A stretch of DNA of 52,467 nt. Source: a phage. The translations under genes and the position numbers were made by a program. The notes below the pieces were generated by a model. That model did not search any database. It was given only the letters and a program-made list of their open reading frames with translations, and had not been told where the DNA came from. Of this stretch, positions 13,113 to 33,196 are shown piece after piece. Within the stretch, counting starts at the first letter, position 1; every line of letters begins with the position of its first letter. The stretch lies in sequence record PZ379545.1; one strand, given 5' to 3'.

Positions 13113-13143
13113 GTTGTTTGTTAAATCAGAGCAGTTCTGAAGC

Positions 13144-13164
13144 ATTAGTTGAATGTGAAAAGAG
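13144..13164 (+). promoter_or_regulatory. Candidate phage-type promoter motif (ATTAGTTGAATGTGAAAAGAG)
   Basis: Motif match about 70 nt upstream of the strongly codon-biased gene at 13236. Confidence 0.45.
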
Positions 13165-13235: not shown

Positions 13236-13574
13236 ATGGCTAAGATTGTAACCGTAACTCAGTATGAAGCTAACGATGGTTCCCTGTTCCTGAGCGAAGC
13301 TGAATGTAACGCACACGATTTCAAACTGGAAAACGGTGCTAAAATCGACGCAGCTGTTGAAGCGTTCGCTAACACCATGAAACTGGCTGACCGTTCTCGC
13401 TCCATGCAGAGCAACACCGTTGCATCCTTCCTGGCATTCTACCTGCCGTGGGTTGAAGCTGGTTGCCCGGAAGTTGAACGTACTGTGTTCGACACTCCGA
13501 AAGAAGTTAAAGTTGCCGAAGCAGAAGTAGTTGAAGCTGTTGAAGCTGCTGTTGAAGAAGCTCCGGTATTCTAA
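13236..13574 (+). CDS. Hypothetical abundant small protein with acidic Glu/Ala/Val-rich C-terminus
   Basis: 112-aa ORF with markedly different codon choice from neighbours (CTG, CGT, CCG, GAA, AAA preferred); TAAGGT RBS. Confidence 0.7.
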   Translation: MAKIVTVTQYEANDGSLFLSEAECNAHDFKLENGAKIDAAVEAFANTMKLADRSRSMQSNTVASFLAFYLPWVEAGCPEVERTVFDTPKEVKVAEAEVVEAVEAAVEEAPVF

Positions 13575-14468
13575 GTTGCTGATGGCAAACTTGAGAGACT
13601 AAGCTAAATCGATCTGGCACGCACTGGAAGATTTCCGGTACTGCCTTGAACCCATTCCAGAGTGAGTGGGCTTCAATGAGCATTCTTGTGATTAGAGTTG
13701 GGAGGTAGGCCGATGCCCAAGCTCGTGGCCCAGACAAGAGTGTTCATTGAAGTAGTTTTCTGAGTCTTACGACGGGCCTAAGCTGCCTGAAGTTATTGCG
13801 ACTGTTTTATTCATTTAAAATAAATGCAAACGATTCTGAAATGCGAGTTGCAGCTTAATTAAATTTAAGTTCTCTCCGTGGTCTTCCAATCCCATGTAAC
13901 CAAATTTGGCGCATTGTGGCTTCGAGATGTGATTAATAAATCGGAGCAATAATTAATTTGTATTCTGCGATGCAAAGCAGGCTTAAGTCCTCCAGTGCGC
14001 GTGGGGATGTGACAGAGTACAAACTTAATTATGCAGTTGGATATTTCTAGAGGACGGACGAGCACACTGGAATGTCTTCAATTGGTTTAGTGTGAGAAGC
14101 TATGCTAATTTGAAACGTAACTCCTTGAGGAAGTGCTCCTCTGGATTTCCCTCCTCACAGGAATCTCAAACCTGTGGCAGCGACTTCGAAGCTGCACTGC
14201 GTAACCTTATTCGCTTTAAGTGAATTGCCCTGAGCATGGAAATAAACTGCTCAAACCAATGATGCCCATAACGATGGGATAAGTTAGGTTGCCTGTTGGT
14301 ACTTGGGTTCAACACCTGCTTGCACTCGCAAAGTAGTGCCTCGTACCTGAGATGAAGTGAGTCGGGACCATCAATCCCACGTTATGTCAAAACACAGTAG
14401 GCGACTCACAGATTCTACAAGCCTCGCAGTTCGGGAAAACCTGCGTTACCAAAACCCACACCCTATTC

Positions 14469-14564
14469 GGACGAGTAGCTCAGAAGGTCTGCTCCAGAGC
14501 TTAGTCAGGTAGAGCAATCTGTTAGACAGATGTGTCGTTGGTTCGAATCCAACCTTGTCCACCA
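14469..14564 (+). tRNA. tRNA-like element with encoded CCA; anticodon arm unresolved, possible pseudo-tRNA
   Basis: 7-bp acceptor stem (GGACGAG / CTTGTCC, one G-U), perfect T-arm (GTTGG-TTCGAAT-CCAAC), discriminator A and CCA. D-arm halves TAGCTCAG and GGTAGAGC are split by about 24 nt; best anticodon hairpin has a 5-nt loop. Confidence 0.4.
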
Positions 14565-14594
14565 GCTTTAATAACCCGCAACACTGGAGTCCTC

Positions 14595-14735
14595 ATGGAT
14601 TTTGATGCACTTGATAATTTAGACTTCGGTGCTGCCGAAGAAGCAATTGAAGAACTGAAGAAGAAGCAGGACGAAGAAGCAATCGTTCCTGGTGCTGGCG
14701 ACAACGACTGCTCAAGTGGTGCGTGCGCCATCTAA
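14595..14735 (+). CDS. Hypothetical small acidic protein
   Basis: 46-aa ORF, ATG 5 nt after GGAG. Confidence 0.4.
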   Translation: MDFDALDNLDFGAAEEAIEELKKKQDEEAIVPGAGDNDCSSGACAI

Positions 14736-14743
14736 GGTGATTC

Positions 14744-14980
14744 ATGCAACAGCTTAAATCAATCTTTCTTGGCGTCTTGACTGCATTGGGTATTCTCCTT
14801 GCAGTGTTCCTCAAAGGCAAAAGCTCAGGCAAAGCCGAGGAGCGTCAGGAAGCCAAAGAGAAGCAATTCGATTCCATTAAAGAATCTATCGAGATTAAAA
14901 CGCATGTTCAGAAAGAAGTGTCTAGCAGTTCTGATAGCAATGTCGATAGTGAGTTGCTCTCAAAGTGGGTTCGTAAGTGA
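14744..14980 (+). CDS. Putative i-spanin-like membrane protein
   Basis: 78 aa with N-terminal hydrophobic helix (IFLGVLTALGILLAVFL) then charged region; contains a nested lipoprotein ORF in another frame. Confidence 0.45.
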   Translation: MQQLKSIFLGVLTALGILLAVFLKGKSSGKAEERQEAKEKQFDSIKESIEIKTHVQKEVSSSSDSNVDSELLSKWVRK

Positions 14981-15113
14981 TTATTGCATGATTGCACAAC
15001 CAATCTATTTGGATGTTGCAGAAGTGAAAGTTTTGTCACGCGAAACCAAAACACAGATTTTAGTCCACAATGAAACGTGGGCACAAAAGTGTTCGAAACT
15101 TACCCGACAGTGA
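14904..15113 (+). CDS. Putative o-spanin-like lipoprotein, nested and overlapping the previous gene
   Basis: 69-aa ORF with lipobox-like LAVLIAMSIVSC; starts inside 14744-14980 in the +1 frame. Confidence 0.4.
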   Translation: MFRKKCLAVLIAMSIVSCSQSGFVSDYCMIAQPIYLDVAEVKVLSRETKTQILVHNETWAQKCSKLTRQ

Positions 15114-15496
15114 GTGAACATGGCCTAGCTAGTTGGTGGTGTAAAAGACTGACCAAGGTGACGACAGCCAAAGTATGGTCGAGTGGGATGCGCGACTTTA
15201 AATAACGTGAACCCAACCTTTCGAGGAAGTCGGTGAAAGCCCGCACGTTGCTCTGGGCATAACAATTGAAATTGCTGCCTCGCATTGAACGCGAGAAAGT
15301 TCAGGTGGTCACTTCCTAGAACAGTGTCCGAGAACACCCTCGCCAAAGTGCTTGAGAACGTTAGCTCTGTCTTGCCAGCATTAATGGCACGTTGGCCGCG
15401 TAAAGGCCACAGCGTCTGACCAACGTATCGGTTAAATCCGGTTCTAATTCAGGCTCCGGTGTATAAACAAAAGCCTACCAAATTCAATGGGATTTT

Positions 15497-15564
15497 CGTA
15501 TGTACGGGCTTGACCGTGGTGAAACGACCTGACTGGTTCGATTCCAGTGAATCCCCCGAACAAT
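15497..15564 (+). other. tRNA-like acceptor plus T-arm element without recognisable anticodon arm
   Basis: GGGATTT / GAATCCC acceptor pairing and perfect T-arm ACTGG-TTCGATT-CCAGT; the 36 nt between cannot be folded into D and anticodon arms by eye. Confidence 0.3.
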
Positions 15565-15983
15565 GGGTTCGTAGAGTTAAATTAAACCTGCACAATTGAG
15601 CGGGACAATAGTCCGAGGCCGACCGTGTAATTGTGAACGTGGAGTTCACCGAATCCACCACTTTCCTAACAGTTATGCCTCTGTTCAAAAGGCTCAAGAG
15701 AGCGTCTGGCATACCGTAGCGATACGGCTTAGTTGCGCTGATTGTGATGTGTCGAAAAGAAGTTCAGGCTTCTGATTGGAATCCTCCTTGTCCGATGTTA
15801 GCTGTATTCAAAATGCAGACTATGTTCCTATTCACATGAAATATGCAAGCCAAGGTTCTTAATGTTCAAACATGATGCGAGCATTAAGCGGGTTTTATTA
15901 CTTTTCCCCGAAAGTCCCTCATAAACAAGCGTGATTCACTTGGGCGGTTCGAATCAAACCTACTCAATTATCTGGAGAATCTT

Positions 15984-16253
15984 ATGGAAGCATATGTTAT
16001 TCCAATCAAAGACAATACCGAATTCGTTGTTGATGAAGTTGCTAAAGCAATCTTTAAAGACTTCATTGCATCAAACCTGAAGCCAGAAGACTTAGGTGCA
16101 GAACTTGGAGAAATCAAAACAGTTATGCGCGGGTTTGCTCGCTTGTCTTACGAAGCTGCGGAAGCACTTCAAGAAGTTAAATTGCATCGTGAATACGAAG
16201 CACAATCAGTTTTAAATGCGTCGCTAAAAGAAATACACGCGTCGTTAAAATAA
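15984..16253 (+). CDS. Hypothetical protein, first gene of the replication module
   Basis: 89-aa ORF; ATG after CTGGAGAAT RBS. Confidence 0.6.
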   Translation: MEAYVIPIKDNTEFVVDEVAKAIFKDFIASNLKPEDLGAELGEIKTVMRGFARLSYEAAEALQEVKLHREYEAQSVLNASLKEIHASLK

Positions 16254-16309: not shown

Positions 16310-16960
16310 ATGATTACTGCAACACTTGTTGACCACATGGGAAACGACCTGACAACTGTTAATGCTGCACGAGTTTCCTATGGTGCACAATCACTGTCTT
16401 TAACTATGCGCGACGAGAAGCTAATTGAGTTTCTTGCAAAGCATAAGCATATTACACCGTTCCGTCATGCACAGGTAACACTGCGCTGCAAAGCTCCAAT
16501 CTTCATTGCACGTCAGCTCGGCAAACATCAAACCGGCTTTAGTTGGAATGAGGTTAGCCGTCGATACAAAGATGGTGAGGCAATTGAAGTTGAATGCTTT
16601 GTTCCAGATAAAATCTTTGCACGACCTGATAAGCTGATGACTCAAACTGCTCAAGCTGTTGAGCCAGAAGTTGCCGATAATATTGCAACATATATTAAGA
16701 ACTTCAATGCTCGTGCAGTGCGTGAATATGAGGCATTAATTGGATTTGGTGTTGCACCAGAGCAAGCCCGAATGGTTCTTCCACAATCCATGATGACTGA
16801 ATGGGTTTGGACCGGCTCCCTCTACGGCTGGGCATCCATGTATAATCAACGTTCCTCCGAACATGCGCAATATGAAGTTCGCTTGTTTGCGGAAGAAGTG
16901 AATAAAATTATGTCAGAGTTGTTCCCAATTTGCTGGAAGGCTTTGACCAATCAGGAATAA
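16310..16960 (+). CDS. ThyX-family (flavin-dependent thymidylate synthase-like) protein with non-canonical active-site residues
   Basis: 216 aa; MGNDLTTVNAARVSY and KAPIFIARQ...SWNEVSRRY resemble ThyX, but the signature RHR position reads KHQ (QLGKHQ). Confidence 0.7.
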   Translation: MITATLVDHMGNDLTTVNAARVSYGAQSLSLTMRDEKLIEFLAKHKHITPFRHAQVTLRCKAPIFIARQLGKHQTGFSWNEVSRRYKDGEAIEVECFVPDKIFARPDKLMTQTAQAVEPEVADNIATYIKNFNARAVREYEALIGFGVAPEQARMVLPQSMMTEWVWTGSLYGWASMYNQRSSEHAQYEVRLFAEEVNKIMSELFPICWKALTNQE

Positions 16961-32819: not shown

Positions 32820-33196
32820 TGTTAACACTAACCGATTTGGTAAAGCGTTATCCTGCTATGGCTGAAATGACAGAAGGTCGTTTTGATATTCTGTTGGAAG
32901 ATGCCAAGCTAGTCATGGGAACAATTGAATCACGTTGGTTAGGTTTCTACAATCCAGCTATGGCATCACTGATTGCACATTGGTCTTCAACGATTGATGA
33001 CCTTCTGCCTGGTGATGCCCCGTTGCCTGCTCTTCCTGTAAGTCGTACAGATGTTGATGACGTACAGGTTGAGTTTAGCGACCGAATGATTTCAACTATT
33101 CCTTATCAAGAAGCTGACCTTATGTCTACGGTCTATGGTCAGGCTTATTTGCGCTGGCGTCGTATGGCATTCGCAGGTCCACGAGTTGCGTGGTAA
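32819..33196 (+). CDS. Head-tail connector / head completion protein (putative)
   Basis: 125-aa ORF, position and TAATG coupling. Confidence 0.5.
   Translation: MLTLTDLVKRYPAMAEMTEGRFDILLEDAKLVMGTIESRWLGFYNPAMASLIAHWSSTIDDLLPGDAPLPALPVSRTDVDDVQVEFSDRMISTIPYQEADLMSTVYGQAYLRWRRMAFAGPRVAW

Follow-up and report, generated by a model that had tools for sequence, protein, structure and literature searches.

The 52,467-nucleotide (nt) phage sequence PZ379545.1 (referred to below, at its full length, as the window) contains a 2.4-kb region, positions 13575 to 15983, that an earlier note had described as coding-poor, and the question raised by this locus is what it encodes if not proteins. The note had drawn at 15497-15564 an acceptor pairing and a T arm like those of a transfer RNA (tRNA) but no D or anticodon arm, had counted this as the second such element after one at 14469, and, taking in a hairpin-rich stretch at 13575-14468, had suggested that the region specifies structured RNAs. 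The analysis described here shows that the element is real and tRNA-derived, as opposed to a chance match. It is, in our view somewhat more probably than not, a non-decoding tRNA-like cassette belonging to a phage array of tRNA and tRNA-like genes, and it would be processed in the same way as a tRNA.

The element, referred to here as cassette 2, occupies positions 15489-15556 on the plus strand, as judged from the sequence, the minimum-energy fold, a strict motif scan, and near-identical copies in other phages; the coordinates given in the earlier note were shifted by about 8 nt downstream. Its acceptor stem is formed by GGGAUUU (15489-15495) and GAAUCCC (15549-15555), which pair over 7 bp (6 Watson-Crick pairs and U7.G66), with G:C at position 3:70 and a length of 67 nt from end to end (15489-15555). 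The T arm, ACUGG-UUCGAUU-CCAGU (15532-15548), was correctly described as perfect: it has a 5-bp stem and a 7-nt loop with all the consensus bases, and it adjoins the 3' strand of the acceptor in the manner of a tRNA. The top half of the molecule is therefore intact, with 12 of 12 pairs, T loop UUCGAUU, U8, G53, and C61. The 36-nt core (15496-15531) folds into a 9-bp two-step hairpin, in which UCGU/ACGA is followed by UACGG-GCUUGA-CCGUG. No D stem can be drawn for the element from either the sequence or the minimum-energy fold, and the fold includes no 7-nt anticodon loop, as the sole hairpin loop, GCUUGA, has 6 nt and lies at the wrong distance; the fold thus agrees with the earlier note that both arms are missing. 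The base at position -1 is U (U15488, preceding G15489). Bacterial RNase P prefers U at this position.

A structure of this kind could in principle be a chance product of the sequence. The motif scan, which required a 5-bp stem with a TTCRANN loop and an adjoining 7-bp acceptor pairing and covered both strands of the whole window, returned exactly two sites, 14469-14560 and 15489-15555, versus a mean of 0.08 in 50 shuffles, and both sites are on the coding strand of the locus. Standard gene finders do not report cassette 2. ARAGORN predicts no genes in the window, and across more than 40 related loci it finds no tRNA at the position of cassette 2 and no transfer-messenger RNA (tmRNA). The Rfam scan proposed in the earlier note gives no match in the window at the gathering score; at a lax threshold, it assigns the element at 14469 to tRNA, cassette 2 to tRNA-Sec (17.4 bits, with a gathering score of 47; expect value [E], 5.9), and positions 13751-13858 to tmRNA_permuted. 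No tmRNA-family model matches 15489-15556 even at an E of ≤10. Among 50,697 phage records searched, 85 match the region, and only 3 of these (flopper, PO103-1, and Ecp_YSF) carry cassette 2 in addition to the window. The IMG/VR database holds a copy only in flopper, and a scan of metagenome contigs yielded three unrelated chance matches and no true copy. The 3' half of cassette 2 has no match in 185,579 bacterial species genomes, so that no tRNA in those genomes is identical to it.

Comparison with related phages, also suggested in the earlier note, places cassette 2 in a tRNA locus. Just 5' of it lies a 47-nt segment, block c (15434-15480, plus strand), which is absent from all other Escherichia coli relatives in the database and is conserved at 87 to 91% in Chaseviridae that infect Proteus (Myduc and PA_03), Pectobacterium/Dickeya, and Erwinia. 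In Proteus phage Myduc, block c is directly followed by a real tRNA-Arg(CCU). The corresponding intergenic region of Pectobacterium phage PM1 holds a tRNA-Cys whose T arm matches that of cassette 2 letter for letter and which shares with cassette 2 the junction CCAAU followed by GGG. Block c contains interleaved pairings (CCGG at 15438-41 with 15456-59 and AGGCU at 15451-55 with AGCCU at 15472-76) followed by ACCA (15477-80); these pairings, read from the letters with almost no covariation, are possibly a pseudoknot. The block looks like a small RNA cassette that has been exchanged between genera; its counterparts are found at L083 3001-3053, L084 3001-3048, and L085 3001-3033. Short islands with 90 to 100% identity in distant Chaseviridae genera also occur at 15175-15217, 15300-15360, 15822-15858, 14225-14254, and 14418-14457, within noncoding DNA that is otherwise unalignable, and some of them are placed differently among genera. 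The island AAGCCUCGCAG...CUGCGUUAYCAAAAC, a hairpin followed by ACCA, is located before the element at 14469 in the window and after the spanin genes in Myduc and in the IMG/VR relative L008.

Over the surrounding 2.9 kb, the window is 88 to 92% identical to the phiEcoM-GJ1-like myophages (Chaseviridae, Carltongylesvirus), and no phage in the database is identical to it. In GJ1, ST32, and Mangalitsa, CACCAAATT is directly joined to CAATGGATTCGTAGAG, without cassette 2. Alignments and BLAST gaps delimit an extra 76-nt unit in the window, flopper, PO103-1, and Ecp_YSF, bounded on the plus strand by the direct repeats CAATGG at 15485-15490 and 15561-15566 (unit span, 15485-15566). These repeats form the inter-cassette junction, ...CCAAAUUCAAU followed by GG. 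Cassette 2 is accessory, being present in few relatives, and recombination between the junction repeats (CAAUGG) appears to account for its gain or loss.

In Chaseviridae, tRNA and tRNA-like genes form a head-to-tail array between the lysis genes and thyX, and the unit junction, NCCA-AAUUCAAU before GG, i.e., NCCA-AA(A/U)(U)CAAU before GG, recurs across the family, including before the tRNA-Cys of PM1. Directly after cassette 2, the window encodes cassette 3 (15565-15660, plus strand; GGGUUCG...GUGAAC-GUGGA-GUUCAC-CGAAUCC-A-CCA), which has a conserved D-region-like segment, a long central arm in place of the anticodon arm, no anticodon loop, and an encoded CCA. The covariance model built from it, R1, detects copies in the window, GJ1, Mangalitsa, PO103-1, Ecp_YSF, and the distant IMG/VR relative L008. 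In the RNAalifold consensus of 5 phages, 8 of the 25 pairs of cassette 3 show compensatory changes, and its folding z score is -2.3 in the window and -3.4 in L008. Only the window copy combines G3:U70, A73, and the encoded CCA, the minimal alanine identity set; the copies in GJ1, PO103-1, and Ecp_YSF have A3:U70. Upstream, as part of the array context, lies tRNA-like element 1 (14469-14564, plus strand), which consists of an acceptor, a D arm with an inserted hairpin, an anticodon-like arm, a canonical T arm, and an encoded ACCA. It scores 27.5 bits with the Rfam tRNA model at the lax threshold (gathering score, 29) and is the other of the two sites in the motif scan, which bears out the earlier report of another tRNA-like element there. 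The hairpin in its D loop (about 17 nt) differs between phages in a compensatory manner (GCUC/GAGC versus GCA/UGC). Its anticodon position reads UAG in the window and UCG in four relatives (L001 2672-2766, L002, L003, and L004), a difference that alters C35, an arginine identity base. The GJ1 copy is annotated as "tRNA-Arg, may contain an intron"; ARAGORN, which does not detect the window copy, reports tRNA-Leu(CAG) for those of GJ1 and ST32, whereas the tRNAscan-based annotation is tRNA-Arg.

The stretch 13575-15983 contains no GJ1-type phage promoter, no sigma-70-like promoter, and no plus-strand terminator. The nearest upstream match to a promoter of the GJ1-type phage RNA polymerase, with 3 mismatches to GJ1 "promoter 7," is found at 13140-13159 on the plus strand, and phiEcoM-GJ1-like phages are described as encoding their own T7-like RNA polymerase (PMC6872899). 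With neither a promoter nor a terminator inside it, the array would be read through by this polymerase from the promoter near 13140. The individual cassettes would then be cut out by the host tRNA-processing enzymes, with RNase P predicted to cleave between U(-1) and G(+1) of cassette 2. Its 3' end would be trimmed and CCA added, the latter step being proposed because CCA is not encoded there. Cassette 2 may thereby act as a processing mark, defining where the neighboring RNAs begin and end, and yield a tRNA-like RNA of about 70 nt. Its anatomy, its nonchance occurrence, its position at a tRNA locus, and its array context are observations; that it is transcribed and processed, and whatever role its released RNA may have, are inferred from them.

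Similar anticodon-less elements exist in other phages. Phage N4 carries an unannotated 62-nt gene composed of an acceptor, a hairpin, a T arm, and ACCA (L115 1509-1574; about 32869-32934 in NC_008720), located within a cluster of tRNA-Asn, -Ser, -Thr, and -Pro genes. This element is retained across Schitoviridae genera, being present in Gamaleyavirus, IME11, and Klebsiella phage cp20, and its central hairpin shows compensatory changes; in some records it is labeled "tRNA-Undet" or "tRNA-OTHER." By analogy with it, an anticodon-less architecture can be maintained by selection. Copies of the N4 type are found at L086 2403-2468 and in L117 and L118, and in PGN829.1 a second tRNA-like structure, of 120 nt, comes after the N4-type element (L086 2471-2594). 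Like cassette 2, the N4 element has a 7-bp acceptor, one central hairpin, a canonical T arm (14 of 17 bases identical), U at -1, and a place in a coliphage tRNA cluster; unlike cassette 2, it encodes ACCA, has a regular hairpin, and is conserved across genera with compensatory changes, and homology between the two is not demonstrable. A Chaseviridae-like sequence, IMGVR_UViG_3300018411_000080, encodes at the same locus as cassette 2 a 70-nt element (L010 277-346) with an acceptor, a long hairpin, a canonical T arm, G3:U70, and A73. Among the elements observed, it is the best candidate for a stand-alone tRNA-like domain (TLD) of the tmRNA type.

The likeness of cassette 2 to other known RNAs is partial. 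With canonical tRNAs (RF00005) it shares the 7-bp acceptor, the 5-bp T stem with the UUCGAUU loop abutting the acceptor, U8, G53, and C61, and with canonical phage tRNA clusters the cluster position, the usual junction, and the upstream block that precedes a real tRNA in Myduc. It differs from them in lacking a D arm, an anticodon arm, and an encoded CCA, in its length (67 versus about 73 nt), and in being missed by ARAGORN and scored at only 17 bits, with a tRNA-clan model. The TLD of tmRNA and the "TLD-only" gene of mycobacteriophage DS6A (Hudson, Lau, and Williams, 2014; PMC4131195) likewise combine an acceptor with a T arm, the anticodon arm being replaced; the DS6A gene is also phage encoded, and cassette 2 has a tag-encoding RNA nearby in the same direction of transcription. 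In contrast to tmRNA TLDs, cassette 2 has G3:C70 in place of G3:U70, C73 in place of A73, no CCA, and no match to a tmRNA model.

Nondecoding modules within longer transcripts are also known from mascRNA at the 3' end of MALAT1, the tRNA-like parts of the TMERs of murine gammaherpesvirus 68, and mitochondrial tRNA "punctuation," where recognition by RNase P and RNase Z creates the ends of the neighboring RNAs and the small product receives CCA. These are eukaryotic or organellar systems with no sequence relationship to cassette 2, the processing of which is a prediction, and the analogy is purely functional. Closer to phage biology, stable RNAs C and D (species 1 and 2) of phage T4 are located in its tRNA cluster, cotranscribed with the tRNAs, and matured by the tRNA machinery. 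They are small stable RNAs of unknown function, and the comparison with cassette 2, which is based on their description, serves as a lead.

As for the rest of the region, the annotation of GJ1 and Mangalitsa together with PHROG matches delineates a conserved gene of unknown function (13236-13574), noncoding DNA (13575-14468 and 15114-15983), a small gene (15984-16253), and thyX (16310-16960). A protein-coding island on the plus strand (14595-15113) consists of a 46-amino-acid open reading frame (ORF), an i-spanin gene (14744-14980; PHROG 1026, Rz-like spanin; E = 7.6e-19), and an overlapping o-spanin-like ORF that ends at 15113. The description of the 2.4-kb region as coding-poor is accordingly right for its two flanks, 13572-14740 and 15111-15887 being the longest stretches of the genome without a plus-strand frame of at least 70 codons, and needs an exception for the approximately 520 nt taken up by the small ORF and the spanin genes.

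The hairpin-rich stretch 13575-14468, for its part, contains an RNA that is conserved in several phage families. On the plus strand, about 1.6 kb upstream of cassette 2, it includes a tmRNA-like tag reading frame, GCA AAC GAT TCT GAA ATG CGA GTT GCA GCT TAA (13826-13858), preceded by AAAUAAAU. The encoded peptide, ANDSEMRVAA, is close to the E. coli tag ANDENYALAA. Positions 13817-13948 are conserved beyond Chaseviridae, in unannotated DNA of Gamaleyavirus (Schitoviridae), Klebsiella phage Magnus (Ackermannviridae), Klebsiella phage VLCpiS13b (whose record names no family), and Aeromonas, Acinetobacter, and Salmonella phages of 46 to 49 kb; a pattern scan of IMG/VR added 24 further loci. Homologues are positioned at L086 2007, L087 2010, L088 1951, L008 1449, and L085 903 and in L089 to L112. 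The frame has exactly 10 codons and a stop in 29 of 29 homologues, representing 14 distinct DNA versions, with the peptides ANEEVYLAVA, ANEEMYLAVA, ANDDVVLMAA, ANDDVILMAA, ANDDAVLMAA, ANDDQFLAVA, ANDEQFLAVA, ANDTEFKAAA, ANDNEMRAAA, and ANDSEMRVAA. The entropy by codon position is 0.52, 0.61, and 1.03 bits, that of the third position being about twice that of the first two, and the other two frames over the tag are broken. The frame fits the tmRNA pattern of a GCA resume codon and a hydrophobic end with AA or VA before the stop.

The tag is followed by a structured domain (13877-13947, plus strand) with hairpin A (13877-81/13892-96), a pseudoknot in which loop positions 13886-89 pair with 13906-09, and hairpin B (13919-25/13941-47), which encloses the invariant UGUGAUUAAUAA. 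In an alignment of 16 sequences from several phage families, 95.2% of the cells are paired and 13 of the 20 pairs are altered on both sides; none of 500 shuffles reaches that level, and slid controls give at most 53%. The pseudoknot loop CCRR pairs with YYGG in three covarying versions. A helix around the tag stop codon covaries in the members from outside Chaseviridae, with 82.8% of the cells paired, a value lowered by misaligned Chaseviridae rows. Together with the compensatory pairs of cassette 3, these figures uphold the view of the region as encoding structured RNAs.

Upstream of the tag, a 14-bp helix, AAUGAGCAUUCUUG/CAAGAGUGUUCAUU (13675-13688/13735-13748), was read from the sequence and its homologues. 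It encloses a variable insert, fits only the plus strand, because it contains G.U pairs, and is the window version of a GGUAAGAGCAUU...AGUGCUCUUUCC module that recurs in the tag RNA family. This module, with conserved arms and highly variable inserts, occurs 2 or 3 times per locus (L088 1815-2320, L110, L091, L112, and L087), preceding both the tag leader and the tRNA-like domain. The apparently "permuted" order of the window relative to L008 is better explained by the presence of the module both before and after the tag in several phages.

Most tag RNA loci have real tRNA genes within a few hundred nucleotides downstream. In the other families, a closed tRNA-like domain lies between the tag and the tRNAs and comprises the acceptor UGUGGUG/CACCACA, a hairpin whose loop contains GG, an insert that varies, and an analogue of the T arm, which in some phages has the canonical UUCGAUU loop; elsewhere, a real tRNA uses the same acceptor strand. 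In L112 (ext 631-704), L098, and L106, the tag RNA is directly followed by phage tRNAs to which ARAGORN assigns an unusual anticodon, AAU (Ile), and in which the 5' strand of the acceptor is the conserved UGUGGUG. In the window, the first tRNA-like structure after the tag is element 1, about 610 nt downstream. The halves of the tRNA-like domain do not enclose the tag or stand in permuted order, and the domain has no G3:U70 and no CCA. With the tag located ahead (5') of an entire tRNA-like domain, the order departs from both topologies known for tmRNA, standard and permuted, and because G3:U70 and CCA are absent, we have not filed the tag RNA as a tmRNA. Two arrangements closer to tmRNA were tried and rejected: a canonical tRNA-like domain enclosing the tag, for which the downstream copy of GGUGGUG/UGUGGUG is a better fit to the 3' strand than the upstream one, which sits in the spacer of a sigma-70-like promoter, and a P2-like pairing in L088 of the 5' leader with the segment before the T-arm analogue, which is not kept in L092.

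Similarity to tmRNA models is visible only below the thresholds. The tmRNA_permuted model gives 22.1 bits at 13751-13858 of the window and 26.5 to 30.7 bits at three loci outside Chaseviridae (Schitoviridae, Ackermannviridae, and the unassigned phage VLCpiS13b), where the alpha- and beta-tmRNA models reach E values of 8e-4 to 7e-3. ARAGORN reports no tmRNA in the window or in 28 homologous extracts, and all of the Rfam scores (22 to 31 bits) are below the gathering score of 47. Neither the 5,426 complete E. coli genomes searched nor the bacterial species set contains a match to the tag RNA. A 2014 survey of tmRNAs listed phage ssrA genes only in Bxz1-like mycobacteriophages, Bacillus phage G, and DS6A, the last with the TLD only (PMC4131195), and no description of the RNAs reported here was found in the literature searched; the tag RNA is apparently undescribed. 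In Klebsiella phage Magnus, a separate segment (L087 3805-4019) matches the Rfam family of the STnc100 small RNA (52.9 bits; gathering score, 47) and is annotated as several hypothetical proteins of 30 to 70 codons.

How well, then, does the reading of cassette 2 as a processed, nondecoding member of the array stand up to the alternatives? Several observations weigh against it. The discriminator is C (C73, at 15556), followed by CGA, and no CCA is encoded; the folding energy is unremarkable (z = -1.14); and most close relatives do without the cassette and show no visible compensation. No covariation is available for it, because the copies in the four phages are near-identical (98 to 100%), and their conservation is no argument for selection, because the upstream flank is equally conserved. 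Nor can it be derived from its neighbor: cassettes 2 and 3 are alike at their ends only, the covariance model of the latter does not score the former, and the idea of a demonstrable paralogue was dropped. Some of these features would be expected of a decaying, functionless gene, i.e., one left over from a real tRNA or copied from the neighboring cassette, which had its core scrambled or deleted and persists in a few closely related phages only because the event was recent. This explanation, the main rival, though one that we consider unlikely, accounts for the rarity and dispensability of cassette 2, for the lack of a cloverleaf and of an encoded CCA together with the C discriminator, for the real tRNAs found at this locus in other genera, and for copies so similar as to give no sign of selection. 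However, random damage should not spare the acceptor and the T arm any more than the core, whereas all 12 pairs of the top half and all T-loop consensus bases have survived, the core itself is a neat two-step hairpin, and analogous anticodon-less cassettes (cassette 3 and the N4 type) are under structural selection. An intact top half joined to a non-tRNA bottom half fits better with selection on the bottom half, or its replacement in one step, than with random decay. RNase P would probably go on cleaving even a dead cassette with this shape, and decay accordingly differs from the favored reading mostly as to whether the cassette matters to the phage, and function and decay cannot be separated on the basis of a few near-identical copies.

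The remaining explanations fare worse than a processed cassette. Participation of cassette 2 in phage trans-translation, either as a stand-alone tRNA-like domain that serves as the acceptor partner of the tag RNA at 13826 or as a "TLD-only" decoy that titrates SmpB, is very unlikely. It is suggested by the tag frame with a coding signature on the same strand, by the tRNA-like domains or real tRNAs that follow the tag RNA in other phage families, by the anticodon-less plan of the tmRNA TLD, by the L010 element with its G3:U70 and A73, and by DS6A, which has little beyond the TLD, a TLD-only molecule being inhibitory to tmRNA (PMC4131195). Against it stand the absence from cassette 2 of the known alanine identity set (G3:C70, C73, and no CCA) and of any tmRNA model match, the lack of cassette 2 in most tag RNA phages, and a search for pairing between cassette 2 and the tag RNA that found none; moreover, the N4 stretch that was read contains the mini tRNA-like gene and no tag frame, so that such cassettes need no tag RNA. 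A broader proposal, that the RNA regions of the locus make up a phage version of the tmRNA system, with the tag module separate from the tRNA-like modules and with cassettes of this type as interchangeable acceptors or SmpB/tmRNA decoys, seems quite unlikely. A chance resemblance in untranscribed or spacer DNA could be argued from the folding energy and from Rfam scores under any threshold; it is highly improbable given the expectation of 0.08 motifs per window, the location on the coding strand directly after the block that precedes a real tRNA in Myduc, and the use of the tRNA junction of the family. Least probable of all is that the stretch codes for protein, through the 87-codon minus-strand ORF at 15449-15712 or small plus-strand ORFs from PHANOTATE-style annotation of the relatives: such ORFs are present, and small hypothetical proteins are annotated in Ecp_YSF and Mangalitsa, but close relatives have indels of 76 and 128 nt, neither length divisible by three, that delete part of the ORF, no coding-type conservation was observed, plus-strand frames dominate the window, and all 79 ORFs of ST32 have one orientation (PMC6266442). 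An integration-site remnant was considered and discarded, as Chaseviridae are described as lytic (PMC12842549) and cassette 2 carries both strands of the acceptor.

The upstream tag RNA is the most interesting lead in the locus. If the tmRNA-like interpretation of the locus were true, virulent coliphages (Chaseviridae, Schitoviridae, Ackermannviridae, and the phages of 46 to 49 kb, some of them unassigned to a family) would tag stalled host or phage proteins with a degradation or nondegradation tag of their own, and if the tag RNA is used, these phages would manipulate ribosome rescue or protein tagging. Cassette 2 and its analogues suggest that phage tRNA clusters, which are usually read as decoding sets, also hold nondecoding, tRNA-shaped genes. 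Such genes are skipped by gene finders or labeled "tRNA-Undet," and at least two types of them, cassette 3 and the N4 type, are under structural selection. If they are processing marks or decoys for tRNA-directed host factors, the annotation of "noncoding gaps" in phage genomes would change.

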